Assembly (NCBI GenBank): GCA_964531375.1
Contig: CAZHDO010000001.1
Location: forward strand, 96,879 to 160,878
From: an uncultured Candidatus Saccharibacteria bacterium
GTDB taxonomy: Bacteria; Patescibacteriota; Minisyncoccia; Phycocordibacterales; UBA12445
Length of the DNA stretch: 64,000 bases
Reading direction: 5' to 3'
Shown here in pieces: positions 989 to 49,860 of the stretch; position 1 is the stretch's first letter; every line of letters begins with the position of its first letter. The notes beneath the pieces are model-generated. The model worked only from the letters and a program-made list of their open reading frames with translations. It made no database searches and had not been told where the DNA came from. A program made the translations under genes and the position numbers.

Positions 989-2194
989 ATGTCAAAGAGA
1001 GTATTGATTTTTTCTCTTGCTTATTATCCAGACCTTATTGGTGGCGCTGAAGTTGCAATAAAAGAAATTACAGACAGGATTCCTGGTAGTGAACTTGAAT
1101 TTGATATGGTCACGTGTTTGTTTAACAGTGAACTTCCAAGACATGAAAAGATTGGTAATATTAATATATACAGAGTCGGTTTCGGAAAAAGTAAACCAAC
1201 ACCCGAAGATCTTTTAAAATTTCCGCTTGTTCTAAATAAATATTTGTTTCCATTTTTTTCCTACGTAAAGGCTGTTGAGCTTAATAAAGTTCGTCACTAT
1301 GATACTACCTGGGCAATGATGGCTAATTATGCAGGTTTTGGGGCAATGTTTTTTAAACTCTTTCACTCAAAAATTTCTTATTTACTTTCTTTACAAGAGG
1401 GTGATCCAGTTGAATATATTAAAAAAAGAGTAAGGTTCGCGTATCCGTTATTTGAGAGAATTTTTACTAAGGCTGACCGAATACAGACCATATCAAACTA
1501 TCTTGCAGGTTTTGCAAAAGAGATGGGATACAAGGGTGAAATAGAAGTTATTCCAAACGGAGTTGATATAGAAAAATTTTCCAAAAAATACTCTGAAGAG
1601 GAGTTGGATAATATAAAACATAAATTAGGCAAAAGGACGGGAGACGTTTTTATTGTAACTGCTTCAAGGTTGGTGAAAAAAAATGCGATTTCCGATGTTA
1701 TAAATTCACTTTTATTTTTGCCGAATAATTATAAATTTATAATTTTAGGCTCAGGTCCAGATCTTAATATTTTAAAGAAATTAGTAGAAAGCGAAAAACT
1801 TAATTCCAGGGTAAAATTTTTAGGTTTAATTGCTTACAGTGAACTTCCTGGATATTTAAAAGCATCTGATATTTTTATACGACCCTCTTTGTCAGAGGGG
1901 ATGGGTAATTCCTTTGTGGAAGCCATGGCTGCTGAAATACCCGTAATTGCAACGCCAGTCGGGGGTATTGTTGATTTTCTTTTTGATCCTGATAAAAACA
2001 AAGACAAAAAACCAACTGGGTTATTTTGTGATGTTAGTGACCCTAAAAGTATTTCCGAAAAGGTTTTAAAAATAACAAAAGAACCGGAACTTAAAAATAA
2101 ATTGGTTAGGAACGCAAAAGAATTAGTAGCTGAAAAATATAATTGGAACATTATAGCGCAAGATATGTTAAGGTTATTTAAGGAGATATGTTAA
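989..2194 (+). CDS. glycosyltransferase family 4 (GT1-fold)
   Basis: C-terminal EGMGNSFVEAMAAEIPVIATPVGG motif (EX7E-type), typical of group 1 glycosyltransferases. Confidence 0.8.
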   Translation: MSKRVLIFSLAYYPDLIGGAEVAIKEITDRIPGSELEFDMVTCLFNSELPRHEKIGNINIYRVGFGKSKPTPEDLLKFPLVLNKYLFPFFSYVKAVELNKVRHYDTTWAMMANYAGFGAMFFKLFHSKISYLLSLQEGDPVEYIKKRVRFAYPLFERIFTKADRIQTISNYLAGFAKEMGYKGEIEVIPNGVDIEKFSKKYSEEELDNIKHKLGKRTGDVFIVTASRLVKKNAISDVINSLLFLPNNYKFIILGSGPDLNILKKLVESEKLNSRVKFLGLIAYSELPGYLKASDIFIRPSLSEGMGNSFVEAMAAEIPVIATPVGGIVDFLFDPDKNKDKKPTGLFCDVSDPKSISEKVLKITKEPELKNKLVRNAKELVAEKYNWNIIAQDMLRLFKEIC

Positions 2195-5011: not shown

Positions 5012-5557
5012 ATGTTTATATTTGGCATAATATTATTGTTTATTTTATACACTATTTATAGCTATAACGGTTTTGTGGTTATTGTTAACCGTGCAAAAGA
5101 GGCTTGGGCAGATATAGATGTTCAGCTGAAGAGAAGATACGATCTTATCCCTAATTTGGTAAATACTGTAAAAGGTTTTGCAACTCAGGAAAAAGGTGTT
5201 TTTGAGAATGTTGCAAAGGCTCGAGCTGTCGCTATGGGTGCGTCTACTCCAGCTGAGAAGGGGGCTGCAGAGGCTTCATTGTCTGGAACTCTTAAGACAT
5301 TGTTTGCTGTTTCTGAGGCGTATCCTGAACTTAAGTCAAATGAGAATTTTTTGGAATTACAAAGAGAGCTTTCCGATACAGAAGATAAAATTCAGGCAGC
5401 AAGAAGATTCTATAACGGAAATGTTCGCGATTTAAATACAGCAGTAGAAGTATTTCCAGGAAATGTAATTGCAAATATGTTTGGTTTTTCTAAGATGGAA
5501 TTCTTTGAACTTGAAGCAGGAAGTGCCGAAAGAGAAGTTGTTGAAGTAAAATTTTAA
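5012..5557 (+). CDS. lemA: LemA family protein
   Basis: N-terminal TM helix then VNRAKEAWADIDVQLKRRYDLIPNLV...ARRFYNG, the LemA signature. Confidence 0.85.
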   Translation: MFIFGIILLFILYTIYSYNGFVVIVNRAKEAWADIDVQLKRRYDLIPNLVNTVKGFATQEKGVFENVAKARAVAMGASTPAEKGAAEASLSGTLKTLFAVSEAYPELKSNENFLELQRELSDTEDKIQAARRFYNGNVRDLNTAVEVFPGNVIANMFGFSKMEFFELEAGSAEREVVEVKF

Positions 5558-7741: not shown

Positions 7742-7856
7742 CAAGAGAGATTTGGTCATAGATAATTTTTCTGCGAAAAATTTCTACAACCCTGACTCAG
7801 CTTCCTTTCTTGTAGAAAGGGGCCCGCTTCCGTCTTTCGAATCTTGATTTTTGCGC
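7742..7856 (-). repeat. tRNA-3'-linked module, A-type (GGGCCCCTTTCTACAAGAAAGG core), distal copy downstream of tRNA-Ser(GGA)
   Basis: Minus-strand reading: CAAGATTCGAAAGACGGAAGCGGGCCCCTTTCTACAAGAAAGGAAGCTGAGTCAGGGTTG...GTGACCAAATCTCTC. Nearly identical to the cores at 22021-22075, 49640-49700 and 43300-43350(-). Confidence 0.8.
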
Positions 7857-7923
7857 TACAAAAATCATGTCGTAAGATTTCTGCAATAAAATTTCAAGAA
7901 ATTTACGACCAAACCTCTCGGCG

Positions 7924-7969
7924 CAACGACAAACCGTCTAAATGTTTGCACATTTAGACGGGTCGTTTG
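7924..7969 (-). terminator. hairpin between the two modules
   Basis: CAAACGACCCGTCTAAATGTGCAAACATTTAGACGGGTTTGTCGTTG: a long perfect inverted repeat. Confidence 0.5.
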
Positions 7970-8120
7970 CGGAGGGTGAGATTCGGCTTCGACTAAAATT
8001 TTCTTCCGAAAATTTTGTCTAGCCACCGCCTTGCTATTTTGTTCGCCAGATGCTCACAAAATTATAGCTCCAGCGTTCGAATCTCTCGCGCAGGCAAAGC
8101 AGTTTGCCTACTACCCTCCG
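7970..8120 (-). repeat. tRNA-3'-linked module, B-type (GCAAACTGCTTTGC loop inside a mirror copy of the tRNA 3' half), proximal to tRNA-Ser(GGA)
   Basis: Minus strand reads CGGAGGGT (rc of the acceptor 3' strand), then AGTAGGCAAACTGCTTTGCCTGCGC, then GAGAGATTCGAAC (rc of the T-arm). It ends with CCGAATCTCACCCTCCG, a direct copy of the tRNA 3' end. Confidence 0.8.
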
Positions 8121-8125
8121 TTCAA

Positions 8126-8151
8126 TAAAATCACCGCTTTTGGCGGGATTT
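8126..8151 (-). terminator. hairpin immediately 3' of tRNA-Ser(GGA)
   Basis: AAAATCCCGCCAAAAGCGGTGATTTT on the minus strand. Confidence 0.5.
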
Positions 8152-8159
8152 TAAACGAA

Positions 8160-12345: not shown

Positions 12346-12376
12346 AAAAACCACTCATTTTGAAGAGTGGTTTTTC
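12346..12376 (+). terminator. terminator hairpin after the RNR gene
   Basis: AAAAACCACTCATTTTGAAGAGTGGTTTTTC. Confidence 0.7.
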
Positions 12377-12379
12377 ATT

Positions 12380-12723
12380 CGTCTGTACCTATAAGCCGAA
12401 TTTTGTTTCATTTCTGTGATTAAGCAGGAATGAAGATAGCTATTTATCTGGTATCAATATTACTATTGAAATCTAGCGGCACTCTTGACCTTGCGACCAA
12501 GCTCGGCCTTGCACTCAAGTAAGGATTTTGCCGTTTCACTTCTTGTATTTCTACAAGATTCACCCAGCCTCAAAAAGAAGTTGGGCGAATTTTATTTTTC
12601 AATAAAATTCGTCACTGTTCGCACCTCTATGATTACTCAAGACGGGGATTACCCGCTACTTTTTAATGAGTGTTCGGACTTTCCTCTCTTTGCAAAAGCA
12701 AAAAGTAGCTATCCGGTACAGGC
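12380..12723 (-). ncRNA. rnpB: RNase P RNA, bacterial type A
   Basis: Minus strand has P1 CUGUACC...GGUACAG, the P4 5' strand AGAGGAAAGUCCGAAC, and the 3' conserved block ACAGAAA...UUCGGCUUAUAGG. The P4 pairing CCGAA/UUCGG covaries relative to the consensus CCGGG/CCCGG. The tracked ORF 12485..12736(+) overlaps it and is spurious. Confidence 0.8.
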
Positions 12724-12857
12724 AAAAAAATTATAATACTAATTTTAGTATCTGTCTAGTTTGTATCATGTAACCTAAAATATTAGAATTAGTTCTATTA
12801 ACAGAGGTGTATTTTTTTTTATTATTCATATTTTAAATTATTAGATTAAAAAAAAAG

Positions 12858-36544: not shown

Positions 36545-36618
36545 GGGCGTTTAGCTCAGCTGGTTAGAGCGTTACATTGACATTGTAAAGGTCACAGGTT
36601 CGAGTCCTGTATCGCCCA
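36545..36618 (+). tRNA. tRNA-Val (anticodon GAC); CCA not encoded
   Basis: Anticodon arm TTACA-TTGACAT-TGTAA, T-arm ACAGG-TTCGAGT-CCTGT, acceptor GGGCGTT/ATCGCCC with one T-T mismatch. Confidence 0.8.
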
Positions 36619-36621
36619 CAT

Positions 36622-36650
36622 AAAAACTGTCCCTAAAAGGGCAGTTTTTG
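36622..36650 (+). terminator. hairpin 3' of tRNA-Val
   Basis: AAAAACTGTCCCTAAAAGGGCAGTTTTT. Confidence 0.65.
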
Positions 36651-36651
36651 T

Positions 36652-36780
36652 TTGGGCGATAGGAAGCAAACTGCTTTGCTTCCGACAGGACTCGAAAAGG
36701 TTCTCCGTTATGTTTAAGAAATTTTTATTTCTAAAACATCGGAAACCTATACAGTCCTCGTAGAGGAAGAGTCCTGTATC
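36652..36780 (+). repeat. tRNA-3'-linked module, B-type, downstream of tRNA-Val
   Basis: TGGGCGAT (rc of the acceptor), then AGGAAGCAAACTGCTTTGCTTCCG, then ACAGGACTCGAA (rc of the T-arm), then AAGG...ACAGTCCTCGTAGAGGAAGAGTCCTGTATC. The terminal copy matches the tRNA 3' end AGTCCTGTATC. Confidence 0.8.
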
Positions 36781-42829: not shown

Positions 42830-43012
42830 TTATGTGGAAATCTCTAAAGAAGACGGATCTTCATTTTCTATATAAAGTGCAGTAGCTTCTCTTATATTGT
42901 TTTCTAGTTCCGGTAATGTTTTTCCGAATGTAAAAATAGGGAAATCCACCGCCTTAGCGCAGTAAACATCATCCTCATCTTTTTTGATTGTAAATTGAAT
43001 TATACTTGACAT
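42830..43012 (-). CDS. HicB-like antitoxin family small protein (tentative)
   Basis: 60-aa protein YCAKAVDFPIFTFGKTLPELENNIREATALYIE, resembling the UPF0150/HicB-N fold signature. Confidence 0.45.
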   Translation of the reverse strand: MSSIIQFTIKKDEDDVYCAKAVDFPIFTFGKTLPELENNIREATALYIENEDPSSLEIST

Positions 43013-43134
43013 ATAGTGATTATATACTATTTTTTTAATATGATCAGGCGCCTTTCTTCCTAATTTTCATTTAGGATTTTTCTCGTCGAAATAGTACGGG
43101 TTTTGTTCCTGGGGTCGTTAGGACAATCAACCTT

Positions 43135-43430
43135 TCTAAAACCTACGGGGAATTTCGGTTGTTACACAACCAGTAGCCTGATTGGATTTTTTCTTCGTTC
43201 TTCGAACTCCAAAAAATGCTCAATCAGGTTTCGAATCCCCGCCGAAATATGGAGGGATACTCGGTCACGCATAAATTTCTTGGCAGAAATTTTGCTCGAC
43301 CCCGACTCAGCTCCCTTTCTTGCAGAAAGGGGCCCGCTTCCGTCTTTCGAATCCCCGTAGGGGCCCATTAAAACAAAATCACCGAATGCTTTCGCATCCG
43401 GCTCATTTGTTTTATGACCCTACGGGGATG
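43135..43430 (-). repeat. orphan pair of tRNA-3'-linked modules (A-type plus C-type) with tRNA-Glu-derived flanks
   Basis: Minus strand: ATCCCCGTAGGGTCAT, then a hairpin, then GGGCCCCTACGGGGATTCGAAAGACGGAAGCGGGCCCCTTTCTGCAAGAAAGGGAGCTGAGTCGGGGTCG...GTGACC, then ...GGGGATTCGAAACCTGATTGAGCATTTTTTG...GAAATTCCCCGTAGG. Confidence 0.8.
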
Positions 43431-43515
43431 GAAATGGAACTCTTTATTTGAAAATATAAAGAAGATTGTCGATTTGCGGGAGGAGAAAAGTTTCTAGATT
43501 AAAAGTTTTTTAAAA

Positions 43516-44748
43516 TCATTTCGTGTATTTTTCAAGGAGTTCTGTAGATGTTGAAGTTTCTGTGATATTTTTAGTTTCAATGTAAGAAACTATATTTTTA
43601 TTTATTTGTAGTGCTCTGCCGTTTTTATTATTTGTGGCCACAACAAATAAAAATTGGTTGTCTTCTCCGATAAGAAATATTTTTTCGTGATTAAAAACAA
43701 GTGTCGAATCGTTTGCAATAATTTTAACAAGTCGAGGTTCGCCACCCCCTATTACAAATGATATTTTTGGGAAAATTGTGGCGCCAAAGATAAATAATGA
43801 TGCCAATAGGGGGATGACTAGTTGTTGGGCTACAATCTGTAAATTTCCATAATTACTTATATGTTCAATAAACTTTAATTTAAGTTGTTCGGCAGGCAAT
43901 TCTGTGTTGTTTAAAAATATATATATGGTAAAAATTGAAGAAAATAACCAAGAAAATAGAAGCCCTTCGTTTATTGGCTGAAAGTAAGAAAAAGACTGGA
44001 AATCAAATAACTCAATACGAAGTTTTAAAAATGAGCAAATAGCAGTAGAAATATATAGACAGATAATTAATATGTCTAAGCTAAAAATAAAAAAAGAAAA
44101 ATAATTATTATAGGTTTTATCTTTTTCTTTTTCAGTTATAAGTATCGCCAACTGGGAAACATCGGTTTTATCAATATCTTTTTTTATCTCACACTTCCTT
44201 CTAAGAGATATTATCCAGGAGTTGATGGTTGTTAGGCATGCTATGGCAATAATAAATAGGAACAAATAAGAAAAAGAATAAAGCCAGAACTTTAATATGA
44301 AGTTTGCACCCAATGAAATATTTATCGGAATTTGTAAAATTTTTTCGCCAATAAAATCATAATTACCAAACAATGGTTTAAATATTAATATCTGATTATT
44401 TAGTGGGGTTGTATATAAACCGATTTTCATCAATTGAGATAAGGCAAGATCTGCTATCAAAAGATAAATTAATATTTGTAGATGATTTAGAAATCTTTTT
44501 TTCCAACTTTTTATTTCAAATAGTTTATCAATTGGGATATGTGCATACATCAACCATGATAGAAACATTGCCACAGTTAGAGATAGTAGTGGGTAAATTC
44601 CAGCTATAATATAACGGGTATTTATTAAATCGAAACTTACTATCCCAAACCGAGAAAGATATGCGTTTATACAGATAAAACCAAAGAAGTATAAAATAGC
44701 AGACGGTATGATGAGTATTTTAGATACTTCTTTTAGTTTGTCGAACAT
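43516..44748 (-). CDS. hypothetical polytopic membrane protein with C-terminal soluble domain (island cargo)
   Basis: About 8 hydrophobic helices. No motif. Confidence 0.5.
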   Translation of the reverse strand: MFDKLKEVSKILIIPSAILYFFGFICINAYLSRFGIVSFDLINTRYIIAGIYPLLSLTVAMFLSWLMYAHIPIDKLFEIKSWKKRFLNHLQILIYLLIADLALSQLMKIGLYTTPLNNQILIFKPLFGNYDFIGEKILQIPINISLGANFILKFWLYSFSYLFLFIIAIACLTTINSWIISLRRKCEIKKDIDKTDVSQLAILITEKEKDKTYNNYFSFFIFSLDILIICLYISTAICSFLKLRIELFDFQSFSYFQPINEGLLFSWLFSSIFTIYIFLNNTELPAEQLKLKFIEHISNYGNLQIVAQQLVIPLLASLFIFGATIFPKISFVIGGGEPRLVKIIANDSTLVFNHEKIFLIGEDNQFLFVVATNNKNGRALQINKNIVSYIETKNITETSTSTELLEKYTK

Positions 44749-44924
44749 ATTTTTTATAAAAAATATAAATTAAGTATCACTTTAAATTTAAGAAAATTCT
44801 TATTCTCTGTGTGGTTGTATTGTGTCGATACTTTTATCATATTTTTTAGTTTTATACAATAAAAATTATTTAATTTAAAAACCCTACATAGTAAATGCAA
44901 TAAATCTTTTTTTTATTAAAAAAA

Positions 44925-45136
44925 TTAAAAATCAGTAAGCTCGTTGACTTTTAGCCCTAGTGCTCCAGAGATTTTATCCATATTTGTAAGAGTAATATTT
45001 TTTTCTGCTCGTTCAATCATCCCGATATATGTTCTGTGACTTTAGCCAGTGCGCCAAGTTTTTCTTGAGAGATACCTCTTTTCATTCTTTCTTCTCGAAC
45101 CCTTTTGCCGAATTTTATAAGTATTTGTTTGTTCAT
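44925..45136 (-). pseudogene. XRE-family (Cro/CI-type HTH) transcriptional regulator carrying a frameshift
   Basis: The first frame reads MNKQILIKFGKRVREERMKRGISQEKLGALAKVTEHISG then a stop. The +2 frame continues GMIERAEKNITLTNMDKISGALGLKVNELTDF, the rest of the HTH_XRE domain. This implies a 1-nt deletion near 45017. Confidence 0.6.
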
Positions 45137-45221
45137 ATCTACACTAAAAGTGTAGATTCTTGCTAACTTTAGCTCTACATACTATAGTTAGCACATATAT
45201 TTAAATAAATGTAATTAAAAT

Positions 45222-45716
45222 ATGTTCTTAATATTAATTTTTGTGGTTATTTTATGGCTTCTGGTAAAATCATTGACCTATGATAATCAGGCAAACGATA
45301 TTGAAGTCAAAAAAGAAACCGTTATTGAATATTTGCCTTATTATAAAAAGAATTACTTGATGACAGGAGCCGAACATAACTTTTTTAAAGTTTTAAATTC
45401 TATTGTTGATAATAAATATTATATTATTCCTCAGGTTGGATTATCTAAAATCGTGGGTATTAACGGTTCTGATAGATATAACTATACTTATTTAAATAAA
45501 ATAGATAGAAAATCTTTGGATTTTGTCCTTTTCGATAAAGATAGTTTTTCTCCCATTGTGATTATCGAACTAGATGATAGCTCCCATGAAAGAGAAGATA
45601 GAAAAGAGAGAGATTCTTTTGTTGATAAAATTGCCCAAAAAATTGGTTTAAAAATTGTTCATATCAAAACTTCTTATAATTACGATTTAGAAATGTTAAA
45701 GAAAGATATTTTTTAA
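45222..45716 (+). CDS. DUF2726 domain protein (restriction-endonuclease-like fold)
   Basis: HNFFKVLNSIV...YYIIPQVGLSKIV...SLDFVLFDKDSFSPIVIIELDDSSH...KIGLKIVHI matches the DUF2726 pattern. Confidence 0.6.
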   Translation: MFLILIFVVILWLLVKSLTYDNQANDIEVKKETVIEYLPYYKKNYLMTGAEHNFFKVLNSIVDNKYYIIPQVGLSKIVGINGSDRYNYTYLNKIDRKSLDFVLFDKDSFSPIVIIELDDSSHEREDRKERDSFVDKIAQKIGLKIVHIKTSYNYDLEMLKKDIF

Positions 45717-45956
45717 ATAATTATTTCTTTGCATTTTTGTGTTAGCACAAGATAATGAGCTTGGGCATTGCTCATGTAGTATTTTCCCTTATAAGGAAGA
45801 AAATCAACCACAGGGTTTTGAACAAGTTAAGGGGTTAAATAAAGCGAATGGAATGAGCCCGGTATTGCGGTAATCAACCATAGAATCTTGCTTGTCGTTT
45901 TTGTAGGTGGACAAGATTGGTGAATTTAAAGAAATTTTAAGTGACTACTAGGTTAG

Positions 45957-46667
45957 GTGATCATGGACATTTTGTTATTTCGTGTTAGATTTCTATTTAT
46001 GGATAGTTATCTAGCAGATAAGATTAAAATTTTAGAGATGATTTGTGCGTCTTTGCCTCCGATAAATGTAATCGAGAATGACGATATAGAGTTATCATAT
46101 TTTGAAGACGAGTTTGTGTTTGAAGGATTATCCTATAATACAGCAATTAATTTATTGAGGGAGGTATTGGGCAAGGGTTTGATAAATAATTTTAATCCAA
46201 ATATTTTTGAGAATAATAAAAGAGGGATTAAATTTACTGTCGGGCGGGATATAGAAATTTATCTGAGGAAGATTAAATATCCAGGCTATGAAGATGGACT
46301 TTTGGGTGCATATATGGAACATCAAATTTTCGATAATGAAGTCCCTAAGGGTGTTTTAAAAACTCCTATTATTATTAATGATAAAAAAGGTATTTATAGA
46401 TTAGATAAACCCGAGTTGTTTTATGGAGTAAAAAATCCATCAAAGCGTTTTGATTTAATTATTTATCTTAGCTGTAAAGACAAGGTCTCGGTTTCGGAAT
46501 TAGCGAAAGAAACAAAACAGGGTCAAGCTGTAATTATGAAAGAAATAAAAAATATAAATTCTATTTTTAGAAAAAAATTAGCCGTTGTTAGTGATTTAAT
46601 TAAACATATTGAAACTAGTGGATATTCTCTTAATAAGGATGACTTTGATATAAAGATTCAAACATAA
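45957..46667 (+). CDS. hypothetical protein (island cargo), possible C-terminal winged-helix segment
   Basis: ORF. VSVSELAKETKQGQAVIMKEIKNIN is HTH-like. Confidence 0.4.
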   Translation: MIMDILLFRVRFLFMDSYLADKIKILEMICASLPPINVIENDDIELSYFEDEFVFEGLSYNTAINLLREVLGKGLINNFNPNIFENNKRGIKFTVGRDIEIYLRKIKYPGYEDGLLGAYMEHQIFDNEVPKGVLKTPIIINDKKGIYRLDKPELFYGVKNPSKRFDLIIYLSCKDKVSVSELAKETKQGQAVIMKEIKNINSIFRKKLAVVSDLIKHIETSGYSLNKDDFDIKIQT

Positions 46668-46781
46668 CCTTTGGTGGGTGTTAACAACCTCTTTTACAAG
46701 ACCTTAAAATAAGGTCTTTTTTGTCTGTAGGGTTGTCTAAAAGTTATCTTGTTAATTGATTAATCTTGTTGCTAGTCACGT

Positions 46782-46810
46782 TTCCTGCTGTCGCTTAAGC
46801 GAAGCAGGAA
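46782..46810 (+). promoter_or_regulatory. candidate rolling-circle double-strand origin hairpin upstream of rep
   Basis: TTCCTGCTGTCGCTTAAGCGAAGCAGGAA is a perfect inverted repeat, followed by the GTCGAGCGAAGCGAGAC iteron-like repeat. Confidence 0.4.
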
Positions 46811-46863
46811 GTCGAGCGAAGCGAGACTGTTTACTTGATTATAACAACACTTAGAGAGAAAGT

Positions 46864-47664
46864 ATGAAAGTTACTAATTTAAAGGTTATCGTTACTGGTT
46901 CTATAATTGAGGTTTATTTTTATCCTGAAAGGGTGCTTGCCTATGACTATCAATCAAATAAAGGCGTTAATTCTGGTGTGAATAGAATTATTGACCAAGA
47001 AGAAGATCTTAGAAACAAGGAATCATCTGTTAATCGGACTAGGTCTAATCTAAAAAGATTAATTAATGCAAATGTCTATATTCCAAACAATCCTTTTTCT
47101 CCTGTGTTTTGGACATTAACCTTTAAAGAAAATATTCAGGATTTAAAGGTTGCCAATAAAATATTTTCTAAATTTATCAAAAGACTTAATTATTTTGTCG
47201 GAAACGGGACAAAAAAGACTTTTTTAAAATATGTTGTTGTTCATGAGTTTCAAGAAAGGGGAGCTGTTCATTATCATGCTATATTCTTTAATCTTAAATT
47301 TATTCATGTAAATATTCTTGCTGATATCTGGGGTCAGGGTTTTATTAAAATAAATAAAATTGATTGCGTTAAAAATATCGGTTCTTATATTTCTAAATAT
47401 TTAGGTAAAGATCTTGCTGGTGGTAAGTTGGATGGACATAAGAGATATTTTTCAAGTAGAAATTTAAAACGTCCTATTTTTATAAAAAATCAACAGGCTT
47501 GTGAAGAAATATTAAAAAATATTCCCAAGGAATTTTTGGTTGACAGTAGGGAGTTTCAAAGTGAATATCACGGAAAGGTTTTTTATACTCAATTTAATAT
47601 TGGTAATAGTGGATATCATGCAGGTTTAATTAAAAGAGTAGCAGGACCTTGCGATAATGATTGA
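46864..47664 (+). CDS. rep: HUH-superfamily rolling-circle replication initiator (Rep)
   Basis: Motif 1 FWTLTF, motif 2 GAVHYHAIFF (HUH), motif 3 SYISKYLGK (YxxK). Confidence 0.75.
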   Translation: MKVTNLKVIVTGSIIEVYFYPERVLAYDYQSNKGVNSGVNRIIDQEEDLRNKESSVNRTRSNLKRLINANVYIPNNPFSPVFWTLTFKENIQDLKVANKIFSKFIKRLNYFVGNGTKKTFLKYVVVHEFQERGAVHYHAIFFNLKFIHVNILADIWGQGFIKINKIDCVKNIGSYISKYLGKDLAGGKLDGHKRYFSSRNLKRPIFIKNQQACEEILKNIPKEFLVDSREFQSEYHGKVFYTQFNIGNSGYHAGLIKRVAGPCDND

Positions 47665-47842
47665 TCTCCAGAAATGCCGACAAATTGCACCTGAACTTTC
47701 TGATATATCAGACGAAGATCTTCAAAAAATTCTTGATTCTCTTTACGAATTGGGTAATTTGGCTTTTGATGTTTGGATTGATAAAAATAAGAGTTCGAAA
47801 TATCCCCATAGGTCAAATGGATTAATTAAGGAGGATAAGTAA
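47657..47842 (+). CDS. hypothetical small protein (island)
   Basis: 61-aa ORF between rep and the recombinase; overlaps the rep stop. Confidence 0.3.
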   Translation: MIDLQKCRQIAPELSDISDEDLQKILDSLYELGNLAFDVWIDKNKSSKYPHRSNGLIKEDK

Positions 47843-47848
47843 AATACT

Positions 47849-49378
47849 ATGAATATGGCCGAAACAAGAAATGGAATAATTTATTGCCGAGTTTCTTCTT
47901 TGGAACAGGTAGACGGCACAAGTCTCGAATCTCAAGAGAGGGTTTGTAAGGAATATGCTCAAAGATTAAATATTAATATTACTGGAATCTTTATTGAAAA
48001 AGGAGAGTCAGCTAAAACAGCAGATAGAACAGAATTTAATAAGGCGGTAGCTTTCTGTTCTGTTAAAAAGAATCAGATCGAATATTTTATTGTATACAAA
48101 CTAGATAGGTTTGCTCGAAATCAAAATGACCATGTAGCTGTTAAGCAGATTCTAAGCAAACACGGGGTCAAATTACGCTCTACAACAGAACCTGTTGATG
48201 ACACACCAACAGGCAAACTCATGGAGGGTGTTCTCTCTTCTTTTGCGGAGTTTGATAATAATATCAGGAGAGAGAGAAGCGCTGGTGGTATGAGAGAAAG
48301 AATGAAGCAGGGGATTTGGGTTTGGAGAGTTCCTCTTGGTTACTCTCGTGTTGGTAAGGGTAAGGGAATAAATATTTCTCCAGATCCAAAATATGCCCCA
48401 TATGTTAAATTAGCTTTTGAAGAATATTCTAAAGGTATTTATACATTTAAATCACTGGCTAACTTTTTAAATGAAAGGGGTTTTGTAACTGAAAACAACA
48501 AGCGAGCCGTTCCGCAGTTAACGGAAAAATTAATTAAAAATAAATTATATTGCGGAATAATAAGTGTTCCAGATTGGAATATTGAAACCAAGGGAATTTT
48601 TGAACCAATAATAAGTGAGGATTTATTTTATAAATGTCAGGTTGGGGGCAAAAGAAGTATTCCTCATCTTGAAAAGAATATCCTATTTCCTTTAAGAAAG
48701 TTTGTCGTTTGTGAGCTTTGTAATAATCCTTTTACAGGTAGCTCTTCTACTGGAAAATGTGGCGTTAAATATCCTTATTACCATCATCAGAAACAAAAAT
48801 GTATCCATGCTCAATATATCTCCAAGGACGATTTAGAAAATAAGTTTGTGGAACTTCTAAATAAAATTAATCCTAGTCAAAAGTTTTTAAAATTATTTAG
48901 AGAAGTTGTTTTGGATATTTGGAAAAATAATTATCAAAAGATTTCAAATGATAACAAAATAATTAAAAGGGATATCGATAATTTAGAGTTAAAAAAACGA
49001 ACAATATTTAATAAACATCAATCGGGAGTTTACACAGACCAAGAGTTTATCTTTGAGAAAGATCTTGTTAATAGACAGATAGCTGAGAAGAATCTTTTAA
49101 TAAAAGACGAAAGGGAAGATAACTTTAATATGGAAGAAGCATTGGACTTTAGTATTGGATACATTAAAAACACTTCCAAAACATGGCTGGATTTAGAAAA
49201 TGATTTTGACAAGAGAATAAGGTTCCAAAAATTGATTTTTGAACAAAAATTAAAATTTATTAAAAATGAATTTGGAACTCCAAAATTAAGCCCAATTTAT
49301 GAGCTTAATAAGCAGTTTTTAGTTAATCCAACAACGTTGGTGACCCTACGGGGATTCGAACCCCGATTTCCACCGTGA
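47849..49378 (+). CDS. large serine recombinase (integrase)
   Basis: N-terminal resolvase domain GIIYCRVSSLEQ (catalytic Ser) plus YKLDRFARN, then a recombinase domain and a Cys-rich zinc-ribbon region (CELCNNP...C). The C-terminus reads through the tRNA-Glu 3' end. Confidence 0.85.
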   Translation: MNMAETRNGIIYCRVSSLEQVDGTSLESQERVCKEYAQRLNINITGIFIEKGESAKTADRTEFNKAVAFCSVKKNQIEYFIVYKLDRFARNQNDHVAVKQILSKHGVKLRSTTEPVDDTPTGKLMEGVLSSFAEFDNNIRRERSAGGMRERMKQGIWVWRVPLGYSRVGKGKGINISPDPKYAPYVKLAFEEYSKGIYTFKSLANFLNERGFVTENNKRAVPQLTEKLIKNKLYCGIISVPDWNIETKGIFEPIISEDLFYKCQVGGKRSIPHLEKNILFPLRKFVVCELCNNPFTGSSSTGKCGVKYPYYHHQKQKCIHAQYISKDDLENKFVELLNKINPSQKFLKLFREVVLDIWKNNYQKISNDNKIIKRDIDNLELKKRTIFNKHQSGVYTDQEFIFEKDLVNRQIAEKNLLIKDEREDNFNMEEALDFSIGYIKNTSKTWLDLENDFDKRIRFQKLIFEQKLKFIKNEFGTPKLSPIYELNKQFLVNPTTLVTLRGFEPRFPP

Positions 49379-49412
49379 AAGGGTGATGTCCTAACCATTA
49401 GACGATAAGGCC
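49338..49412 (-). tRNA. tRNA-Glu (anticodon TTC), CCA encoded
   Basis: rc: GGCCTTATCGTCTAATGGTTAGGACATCACCCTTTCACGGTGGAAATCGGGGTTCGAATCCCCGTAGGGTCACCA. The acceptor has two G-U pairs. Confidence 0.8.
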
Positions 49413-49574: not shown

Positions 49575-49860
49575 TAAATGGCCCACTTAAATTTGAAAAC
49601 ATTTAAGTGGTTCGCCATTTTAAGAGGCGAGAGGATTTGAAGGACGGAGTCGGGCCCCTTTCTGCAAGAAAGGGAGACGAGTCGGGGTCGAACAAAATTT
49701 TCGTAGAAAATTTATGTGTGACCAAATCCTCCCGCCTCCGCAGGAGTTTGAAAGCAATTTTAAATTGCTTTCAAAAAGAGGATTTGAAGCCTGATTGAGC
49801 ATTTTTTGTCTGTAAGATTCAAATCCTCCACTGGTGGTTTTGAAAGTTAACAGTAAAATT
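49575..49860 (+). repeat. tRNA-3'-linked modules (hairpin, A-type, hairpin, C-type) downstream of tRNA-Ser(CGA)
   Basis: Hairpin CCACTTAAAT...ATTTAAGTGG. Then GAGGATTTGAA (rc of the T-arm), GGACGGAGTCGGGCCCCTTTCTGCAAGAAAGGGAGACGAGTCGGGGTCG...GTGTGACC, then CAAATCCTCCCGCCTCCG, a direct 3' copy. Then hairpin GAAAGCAATTTTAAATTGCTTTC. Then GAGGATTTGAAGCCTGATTGAGCATTTTTTG...ATTCAAATCCTCC. Confidence 0.85.

Follow-up and report, generated by a model that had tools for sequence, protein, structure and literature searches.

The tRNA-Glu locus

The DNA analysed here is a stretch of 64 kb (the window) with 34% G+C and seven tRNA genes. All seven tRNAs have modules flanked by copies of their own sequence, and the set that belongs to tRNA-Glu is an orphan: it lies at the far end of an integrated element that separates it from the gene. 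The features of the region are collected in Table 1, which also refers to L029 and RA.bin60, two related genomes that are described below.

Table 1. Features of the tRNA-Glu region and of the comparison locus, in window coordinates
Feature	Position	Strand	Basis or remark
Outer direct arm ATTCCCCGTAGG	43142-43153	-	Pairs with mirrored arm 1
C core, 76 nt: long arm CCTGATTG...CAATCAGG and small hairpin GGTTG-TGTAA-CAACC	43154-43229	-	Covariation and fold
Mirrored arm 2 GGGGATTCGAA	43230-43240	-	Reverse complement of tRNA-Glu T-loop and T-stem 3' strand
Linker between A and C cores, 13 nt	43241-43253	-	Fold and sequence
Inner T3'-like arm GAGTATCCC	43254-43262	-	Fold and sequence
A core, 83 nt, three-way junction, 3' end GTGACC	43263-43345	-	Covariance model, 106.9 bits
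Mirrored arm 1 CCCTACGGGGATTCGAA	43346-43362	-	Exact reverse complement of 17 nt of tRNA-Glu
Former tRNA-Glu terminator hairpin, 46 nt	43369-43414	-	Conserved flanks; compensatory centre changes in RA.bin60
attR core, displaced tRNA-Glu 3' fragment ATCCCCGTAGGGTCA (15 nt)	43415-43429	-	Exact repeat search
Integrated element, 5,911 bp between 15-bp cores	43430-49340		Direct repeats and gene content
P-arm motif GAGTTCCA	43435-43442		Also in L029; as GAGTTC in RA.bin60
Rolling-circle replication initiator (Rep), PF23343 REP_ORF2-G2P, phrog_3419	46864-47664	+	Profile match
Large serine recombinase (LSR), 509 aa	47849-49378	+	Resolvase, Recombinase and Zn_ribbon_recom domains; motif YCRVSSLEQ
tRNA-Glu(UUC), island-regenerated, ends ...GGGGTTCGAATCCCCGTAGGGTCACCA	49338-49412	-	tRNA prediction
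attL core inside tRNA-Glu	49341-49355	-	15-bp repeat
Modules after tRNA-Ser(CGA) (gene end 49575)	49580-49829	+	Comparison locus

The orphan module pair

Read on the minus strand, positions 43142-43429 hold, in this order, a copy of the tRNA-Glu 3' end, a terminator hairpin, an inverted copy, the A core, a second inverted copy, the C core and a direct copy. The hairpin, with the centre GCCGGATGC-GAAA-GCATTCGGT and a T-run, is an intrinsic terminator by its score. Mirrored arm 1 spans the T-loop, the T-stem 3' strand and the acceptor 3' strand of tRNA-Glu, and the outer direct arm copies the end of the T-loop, the T-stem 3' strand and the start of the acceptor 3' strand, with one T added. The A core is made up of GAA-R, P_a, a GGA/GA loop, P_b, a hairpin (CCCUUUCU-GCA-AGAAAGGG) and P_d, which ends in GUGACC, and the C core is an intact member of the C-type three-way-junction family. 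By fold prediction the pair is nested, with a single outer helix (CCUACGGGGAUU / AAUUCCCCGUAGG) around both cores, as at the tRNA-Gly locus. The predicted RNA fold of the orphan has -92.9 kcal/mol, compared with a shuffle mean of -66.6 (z = -6.3). Small open reading frames over the modules (43103-43360 on the plus strand and 43162-43368 on the minus strand) were discarded as coding because of the compensatory pattern of the base-pair changes.

All of the parts that a preliminary description of this DNA had listed at 43135-43430 of the minus strand are present at the place and on the strand given there. The copies had been called T-arms; they do derive from the tRNA tail, but they run on into the acceptor 3' strand. 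That the source is tRNA-Glu, as had been proposed, is borne out by searches of the 64-kb window. The 17-mer TTCGAATCCCCGTAGGG, with up to two mismatches, has two sites, tRNA-Glu and the inverted copy at 43346-43362, and the 15-mer ATCCCCGTAGGGTCA, with up to one mismatch, likewise has two, tRNA-Glu and the direct copy at 43415-43429; 0.00 matches are expected by chance in shuffled sequence for either. Since both are confined to tRNA-Glu and the orphan and none occurs in shuffles, the observation is correct and chance is excluded. TTCGAATCCCC is absent from every other tRNA in the window, and none of the others shares the tail of tRNA-Glu.

A second tRNA-Glu isoacceptor outside the window could carry the same tail; the comparison covered the seven tRNAs of the window.

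At the tRNA-Ser(CGA) locus the order is hairpin, mirrored arm, A core, direct arm, hairpin, mirrored arm, truncated C core and direct arm. The A cores of the two loci are 90% identical over 68 nt and the starts of their C cores 93% identical over 29 nt; the best copy in the A/B covariance model scores 118 bits, the orphan 106.9. The alignment that had been suggested, with the Ser(CGA) locus and with the tRNA-Glu 3' end, thus gives closely related cores together with tail copies of 17 and 15 nt. The layouts of the two pairs had been described as the same, which is right as to the parts, but the Ser(CGA) pair consists of two tandem self-closed modules with a truncated C core and the orphan is nested.

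The integrated element

The element encodes a 410-aa protein for which no family match was obtained, a DUF2726 protein, a 236-aa protein, a rolling-circle Rep that is about 35% identical to the Reps of small phage-like replicons, a 61-aa protein and a serine recombinase. The recombinase matches PF00239 (1.1e-32, residues 10-156), PF07508 (8.2e-12) and PF13408 (1.3e-05) as well as the "integrase" family phrog_95 (2.3e-79). It has the N-terminal resolvase catalytic domain with its serine motif, the C-terminal extension with Recombinase and zinc beta-ribbon domains and a length within that of LSRs (about 450-700 aa). LSRs of the phiC31, Bxb1 and TP901-1 type are the integrases of phages and mobile elements, and the window enzyme shares with the phage integrases the three domains, a size of about 500 aa, the catalytic motif and the position of its gene at the element end next to the att site. 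The LSR frame runs into tRNA-Glu, which is on the other strand: its stop and last 13 codons lie within the gene, and these 13 codons are the reverse complement of the tail. If the element were circular, the frame would run 22 codons past the core into the other end of the element.

As in tDNA islands generally, an intact tRNA lies at one end of the element and a 3' fragment in the same orientation at the other, with the recombinase gene at an end. The island copy of the tRNA-Glu tail encodes CCA; the displaced original tail does not, and the terminator stands directly next to it. Taken alone, the displacement event is the textbook signature of a tRNA island, which is ordinary and adds little. 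A regenerated gene and a displaced 3' fragment mark the ends of tRNA and tmRNA islands in the Islander/TIGER sense (PMC4383910), and the window element agrees with these islands in its intact tRNA-Glu, its 15-nt direct copy of the tail, its integrase beside the tRNA and its island-supplied tail, as does a relative, L031, in having tandem attR remnants. It differs from them in that an LSR takes the place of the tyrosine recombinase and in that the LSR frame enters the tRNA on the opposite strand.

In a 2014 survey the serine recombinase class was not known to use tRNA genes. According to a preprint on tycheposons, a minority of the integrase-carrying, tRNA-flanked elements use an LSR (10.1101/2020.12.28.424599). 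The window element, too, is taken to replicate autonomously, as is frequent among tycheposons. Compared with known LSR elements, the present one is unusual in its Patescibacteria host, in being a 5.9-kb rolling-circle replicon, in having 15 bp of att identity, which is more than an LSR needs, and in a specificity for tRNA-Glu that is kept down to 58% identity of the recombinase.

Distribution and plan of the modules

Directly behind six of the seven window tRNAs, and on their strand, lie one to three modules; in 5/6 of these cases a terminator-like hairpin comes first. Apart from the orphan, all matches to the A/B model in the window lie behind tRNAs. When one genome per species was scanned, the A core turned up in RA.bin60 and in a single contig from a Bacteroidota bin, and nowhere else. 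RA.bin60 has modules behind the tRNAs for Lys, Gly, Phe, Ala, Val, His, Leu, Ile and Arg(GCG) and behind tmRNA. In the scan matches the A core occurs behind tRNA-Lys, Gly, Val, His and Ile and behind tmRNA, and modules of the C-type or B-type occur behind Phe, Ala, Leu, Ile(UAU) and Arg(GCG). Homologues of the 289-aa protein that flanks the window locus (63-74% identity) lie in non-syntenic contexts, and modules are absent behind the tRNA-Gln and tRNA-His genes near them; their absence at these tRNAs of relatives with about 70% identity argues that the modules are lineage-restricted. The modules form two core families, A/B and C, which are restricted to this lineage and to positions behind tRNA and tmRNA genes.

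A module consists of an inverted copy of the 3' strand of the gene, reaching from the T-loop to the discriminator and often further, followed by a core and a direct copy. The direct copy begins near T-loop position 56-57. The arms cover tRNA positions ~57-73 at the majority of loci, and at most loci 12-20 nt of them are identical to the tRNA there; they also track the single-base differences between the tRNA-Val and tRNA-Gly genes of two genomes. Because the two strands of the closing helix are an inverted and a direct copy of the same gene strand, the helix imitates a stacked acceptor and T-stem, and at most loci it is a minihelix of this kind that ends at the discriminator. The mirrored arm is interrupted by a hairpin, at the acceptor/T boundary or at most one base from it, in the modules of Phe, Val, Ser(GGA), Ala, Leu and Ile. 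In a tRNA this boundary is the place of the D and anticodon arms.

Some of the arms have been cut short or have degenerated; L001 Lys and L002 Gly are examples. The mirrored arms of first modules often extend the inverted match through the terminator into the A-rich trailer of the tRNA, so that tRNA tail, terminator and mirrored arm make up one palindrome, an arrangement that fits palindrome growth at the DNA level as well as it fits RNA pairing. What the arms copy is the gene and its trailer, not the mature CCA end, and many direct arms match perfectly as far as the discriminator or CCA. The types of module at orthologous tRNAs differ between genomes, which points to turnover.

Islands at tRNA-Glu in related genomes

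Homologues of the LSR number 1,596 at E <= 1e-20, and all those with a named source come from Patescibacteria. The recombinases of L029 and L030 are 61% identical to that of the window and the one of L031 58%; each overlaps the 3' end of a tRNA-Glu(CUC) gene identically. The order of Rep, small open reading frame and LSR is kept in the islands of L029/L030 and L031, and the cargo varies.

At the far end of the L029 island, GAGTTCCAATTTAACGCCCTTTGGGTCAC is followed by a hairpin and then by two A/B modules (79.6 and 70.9 bits). The attR of L029 reads GAGTTCCA...GGGTCAC, with the same distance from GAGTTCCA to the end of the core as in the window attR, and the arms of its modules (GATTCCCCGTAGGGTCAC and the complement) correspond to the T-loop variant GATT of L029's own tRNA-Glu. 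In RA.bin60 (JAKLHJ01; L015) the terminator hairpin has the flanks TAAAACAAATGA...GGTGATTTTGTTTTAA as in the window and a centre with compensatory changes. Modules of the Glu type lie 3' of this hairpin in a tandem 182-nt duplication, and the locus is near Sua5 and response-regulator genes, which are also neighbours of the window locus. An island end bearing GAGTTC precedes the hairpin, and the cargo of this island is a type III restriction-modification system. In L031 three attR-like sites lie in succession (GGTTCCAA...CCCCACTTGGGTCA, at 1936, 2425 and 3181), and L031 contains neither an A/B-module match nor an inverted repeat of the tRNA tail. At its tRNA-Glu, which lacks modules, elements with recombinases of the same family have inserted repeatedly.

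For the empty site we searched, with both flanking proteins as exact queries, a same-species set of GCA_037130235.1 (NCBI), two ENA assemblies and those Logan contigs that reach the site, which end within the A core or the att core. All same-species contigs with the exact flanking proteins carry the island, and the exact pattern of the predicted empty junction had 0 matches in the JGI metagenomes. The order of events is therefore based on the comparison of structures rather than on the observation of an allele that predates the insertion. The preliminary description had looked to relatives for the empty arrangement; what they carry at tRNA-Glu is other islands of the same family. IMG/VR contained neither the A core nor close relatives of the LSR, and the phage and plasmid collections gave no DNA match to the orphan region.

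Order of events and probable crossover point

The minus strand of 43142-43429 is the original downstream flank of tRNA-Glu, comprising its terminator and one nested A+C unit. As the comparison with L029 and RA.bin60 shows the terminator and modules to be shared and the islands to differ, the modules are chromosomal and predate the insertion. Moreover, the displaced fragment lacks TTCGA and the mirrored arms copy it, so the arms formed while the full tRNA tail was adjacent and not after the split. The preliminary description had held that the element inserted between tRNA-Glu and its module pair and that the modules are the older of the two. Both claims stand: 15-bp direct repeats bracket the 5.9-kb element with its Rep and serine recombinase, and the same arrangement with other cargo recurs in the two related genomes. 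The finding of a displaced flank is real and the central reading is right. The best explanation for the whole is, with good if not complete confidence, that the tRNA-Glu flank was displaced by an LSR element and that the modules belong to a lineage-restricted family linked to tRNA and tmRNA genes.

The flank was separated from its gene when a 5.9-kb rolling-circle replicon with an LSR integrated into the 3' end of tRNA-Glu, presumably through serine-recombinase exchange between an attP bearing a tRNA tail and an attB in tRNA-Glu. Exchange of attP with attB is the established mechanism of this enzyme family. The element brought its own copy of the tail (ATCCCCGTAGGGTCA plus CCA) and so regenerated the gene, and the old tail fragment, the terminator and the modules were left at the far end, as attR. 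The predicted attB junction before insertion is GGGGTTCGAATCCCCGTAGGGTCATAAAACAAATGAGCC, and that predicted for the attP of the excised element is GAGTTCCATTTCCATCCCCGTAGGGTCACCAACGTTGTTGG.

The shared core lies within the T-stem and acceptor 3' strand of the tRNA. Since GGGTCA(C) is all that the cores of the window and L029 share, the crossover most likely falls in the acceptor 3' strand, and from these sequences we infer a 2-bp exchange within GGGTCA. The first module starts 52 nt downstream of the core, past the 46-nt terminator. The recombinase had been thought to act at the junction of tRNA and module, a proposal that is not supported: the shared core is inside the tRNA, the terminator intervenes and the L031 tRNA-Glu is targeted without modules. 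The last of these also indicates that the recombinase is independent of the modules.

Structure of the cores and searches for known families

In the alignment of A/B cores 93.9% of the cells are paired, compared with 77% in shuffles and 36-45% in slid controls, and double changes occur in 21/29 pairs. One G.U pair is invariant in 16/16 sequences, which argues for a strand-specific structure that is read on the tRNA-sense strand. In at least four genomes the bases left unpaired at the junction (GAAR, GGA/GA and GG) are conserved. The C core is a second three-way junction, with compensatory changes in 19/33 pairs. Pairs in the arms have no excess of G.U over A.C.

A search of Rfam 15 brought up only noise for the modules, both for the window with the gathering threshold and for three module regions with relaxed E-values. 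The noise consisted of models for CRISPR-DR, miRNA and snoRNA that scored 10-26 bits, all far under their gathering scores; most E-values were 0.2-8, and the best, 0.004, came from long-hairpin miRNA-precursor models. RF00005 did not match a module up to E 10, and ARAGORN and Rfam find only the seven true tRNAs in the window. The modules are neither tRNAs nor pseudo-tRNAs, as the core replaces the T-loop, and they are not MITEs or REP elements either, as their arms are locus-specific, equal to the adjacent tRNA, and constant terminal inverted repeats are lacking. A search of the full-text literature found no description of modules that copy tRNA tails, and this family of repeats wrapped in tRNA tails seems to be undescribed.

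Possible roles of the modules

The functions considered for the modules are putative. Tentatively, we favour a model in which they are sense-strand RNAs that are trimmed by tRNA-processing enzymes and have their arms kept in step by gene conversion and unequal crossing-over. Module RNA would arise by read-through of the terminator or from starts just past the T-run. Because the closing helix imitates the acceptor/T-stem stack, tRNA-processing enzymes could define the module ends, recognising the minihelix and trimming there. Gene conversion and unequal crossing-over between the direct copies would hold the arms equal to the tRNA, and tandem duplications such as those in RA.bin60 and L029 would be expected by-products of such crossing-over. 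The modules might then be an undescribed class of structured RNA in this Patescibacteria lineage, linked to tRNA and tmRNA genes and with a helix continually re-templated from the neighbouring tRNA, a view that the covariation and the matching arms make possible and that still falls somewhat short of probable.

Some observations count against the RNA model, among them the strong terminator between most tRNAs and their modules. The truncated and degenerate arms and the lack of a G.U excess over A.C in the arms do so as well.

If the RNA model is true, each tRNA gene would have its own look-alike of the acceptor and T-stem, which could be excised by the processing enzymes or could act on these enzymes or on factors that target tRNA tails, such as integrases or toxins. 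From the orphan at tRNA-Glu it would follow that the unit remains intact when no tRNA adjoins it.

The main rival is that the modules are selfish or neutral DNA palindromes and not functional RNAs, and that template switching extends the terminator palindrome outward; by fold-back priming or quasipalindrome correction the tail would be copied first inverted and then direct around a hairpin-prone core, and gene conversion would spread the cores between loci. Such growth would account for the long palindromes formed where the mirrored arms of first modules pass the tRNA end into the trailer, for arms that copy gene and trailer instead of the mature CCA end, for the turnover of module types at orthologous tRNAs, for the many truncated arms, for the terminator between most tRNAs and modules, and for tandem duplication in the arrays, as predicted by unequal crossing-over. 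It does not readily explain the strong compensatory covariation, the invariant strand-specific G.U pair and the unpaired bases kept in at least four genomes, nor the placement of the hairpin at the acceptor/T boundary in several modules or the confinement of modules to the tRNA-sense strand behind genes with a T-arm. On balance we consider this origin unlikely, although it deserves to be taken seriously.

Improbable is a role as spare or decoy att sites at the DNA level, which would divert integrases or allow insertions to be deleted precisely. Modules do lie behind tRNA and tmRNA genes, the classic targets of integration (PMC4383910), many of their direct arms repeat the tail without a mismatch as far as the discriminator or CCA, and tRNA-Glu is a recurrent target in the lineage. 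However, the islands of the window, L029 and RA.bin60 all used the real tRNA tail and not a module arm, which makes a decoy role less likely, and the covarying cores and the inverted arm would be left unexplained.

Two other accounts concern the origin of the orphan and are effectively excluded. Delivery of the pair by the island, as part of the element, might be suspected from its position against the island end and from the presence of both in all sampled same-species genomes, but the pair lies outside the direct repeats and past a terminator whose orthologue in RA.bin60 stands behind another island, the related L031 islands lack modules at 3/3 attR sites, the L029 arms match the T-loop variant of their own host, six other tRNAs of the window have modules without an island, and viral contigs gave no A-core match. 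Equally negligible is formation after the insertion with the tRNA fragment in attR as template: such a fragment does lie just upstream of the modules, but it comprises no more than ATCCCCGTAGGGTCA, TTCGA of the T-loop is also copied in the mirrored arms, and two other genomes have the same arrangement with independent cargo.

Several known kinds of element were rejected. Remnants of group I or II introns would be far larger than the modules, which also have no matching domains, and the published group I introns in tRNAs of Patescibacteria are anticodon-loop introns unrelated to the modules. A guide RNA like those of IS110 or TnpB was dismissed because no such gene is nearby and relatives of the LSR integrate without modules, and primer-binding sites of the retroviral type because the arms copy gene and trailer and not the mature CCA end. 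In integron attC sites the arms are conserved and the centre is variable, the reverse of the modules.

Significance and relation to known repeats and RNAs

The LSR belongs to a large family (more than 1,500 homologues), and in Patescibacteria the 3' end of tRNA-Glu is a target of members with as little as 58% identity. The displacement at this locus argues independently that the modules are a stable part of the chromosome rather than debris of integrating elements, and with their chromosomal nature shown the most obvious trivial explanation is removed. The combination of strong covariation of the RNA type with arms that track the adjacent tRNA was not found in the described RNA families and repeat classes. 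If functional, the modules would point to tRNA-linked biology not yet known, in organisms whose genomes are minimal; if selfish, they would represent a new mode of propagation for a repeat. The parts worth following are the specificity of the LSR family for tRNA-Glu and the family of modules that copy tRNA tails.

REP/BIME, Correia and RUP elements are extragenic palindromic repeats or MITEs. Like them, the modules are short, multi-copy, intergenic, hairpin-forming, often near terminators and prone to duplication. Unlike them, the modules have inverted arms that are locus-specific, and they occur only behind tRNA and tmRNA genes, on the strand of the gene. They differ from MITEs also in that neither a transposase nor a target-site duplication is evident.

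Elements of the mascRNA type are cut out by RNase P and RNase Z. The modules resemble these elements, the tRNA-like domain of tmRNA and bacterial Y RNA (PMC4201824) in having a helix that mimics the acceptor and T-stem on a different body, and the tRNA, tmRNA and Y-RNA models gave no match to the modules. In the modules, in contrast to these tRNA-like RNAs, the core replaces the T-loop, the helix is locus-specific and copied from the upstream tRNA, and the 5' strand is a perfect complement of the 3' strand rather than a copy of the tRNA 5' strand. Some modules share with the tRNA-like RNAs a single hairpin at the position of the D and anticodon arms.

The recombinase gene and tRNA-Glu

In three genomes (the window and the comparison loci L029 and L031), the reading frame of the large serine recombinase (LSR) stops about 40 nt within tRNA-Glu, which lies on the opposite strand. 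Because the frame ends inside the tRNA gene, integration and excision would give the protein different C-termini; for the window LSR, the prediction is a gain of 15 residues in the excised form over the integrated one. L031 also carries three tandem attR-like sites with the sequence GGTTCCAA(T/C)TCTC-CCCCACTTGGGTCA, and a terminator-like hairpin comes after each of them. These sites suggest that elements with the same LSR family have integrated repeatedly at one tRNA-Glu, in a genome that is free of modules. Directly beyond the orphan modules of the window is a small ORF with a weak match to HicB-like antitoxins.

Coordinates of features in the window and in comparison loci
Feature	Location	Positions	Strand	Remarks
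LSR frame; tRNA-Glu	window	47849-49378; 49338-49412	(+); (-)	
LSR frame; tRNA-Glu	L029	10001-11521; 11481-11555		
LSR frame; tRNA-Glu	L031	10001-11524; 11484-11560		
attR-like site 1	L031	1936-1949	(-)	
attR-like site 2	L031	2425-2438	(-)	
attR-like site 3	L031	3181-3194	(-)	
60-aa ORF	window	42830-43012	(-)	E = 0.0025, below Pfam cut-off
A-type module, tmRNA 3'-end-derived arms	L005 (RA.bin60)	1485-1619	(-)	
tmRNA gene adjoining the module	L005 (RA.bin60)	1671-2073	(-)	
Bacterial RNase P RNA class A	window	12376-12724	(-)	121 bits, gathering score 100

The assemblies are fragmented by the module and att repeats. Logan contigs from SRR12676970 break within the orphan A core, one starting at window position 43315 (L010) and another ending at 43316 (L014). 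A Logan contig from SRR12676969 (L011) begins within the att core, at window position 49349, a break that could hint at mixed island states.

Modules behind tmRNA and displaced arrays

In the related genome RA.bin60, the tmRNA gene is followed by an A-type module whose arms derive from the tmRNA 3' end, and the same arrangement occurs in L016; the module system therefore extends to tmRNA as well as tRNAs. The RNase P RNA gene of the window has no module behind it, which fits the view that modules belong to T-arm-bearing genes.

A second displaced array lies at about 5090-5300(-) in locus L003, relative to tRNA-Ala at 7820-7893(-), and L021 has the same array. Part of the tail of this tRNA-Ala (GTCCAC) recurs about 2.5 kb downstream of the gene, together with the same terminator and the start of a module. 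Between the repeats lie small ORFs and the genes of an HTH protein and a methyltransferase; none of them encodes an integrase. Since the repeat, of about 65 nt, takes in the terminator, the insertion is not a simple exchange of tRNA tails.

The tRNA-Val gene and its modules have opposite orientations relative to the neighbouring Sua5 gene in the window (36545-36760(+)) and in RA.bin60 (L015 4427-4686(-)). Only the C-type follows tRNA-Val in the window genome, whereas RA.bin60 has both A-type and C-type modules there.

Arms, core and spacer

Many mirrored arms start with TTTTGTAG (L002 3260-3285, L004 at about 300-325, and L003, L006 and L007). Set against GTGC..., the exact reverse complement of the tRNA end, these arms have one extra A, a recurring single-base bulge between the complements of the discriminator and of the acceptor strand.

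The best-conserved hairpin of the A core is CCCUUUCU-GCA-AGAAAGGG(AG), as at window 43299-43317(-) and 49660-49678(+). The Shine-Dalgarno sequence pairs with the 3' tail of 16S rRNA as CCUCCUUUCU / AGAAAGGAGG. The A-core hairpin resembles this pairing; the window itself has no 16S gene for comparison.

A further conserved spacer, at window 7850-8158(-) and at about 440-515 in L004, consists of two hairpins, GGTCGTAAATTTC...GAAATCTTACGACC and then TGATTTTTGTAGNGCAAAAATCA, and stands in the place of the terminator ahead of some modules.
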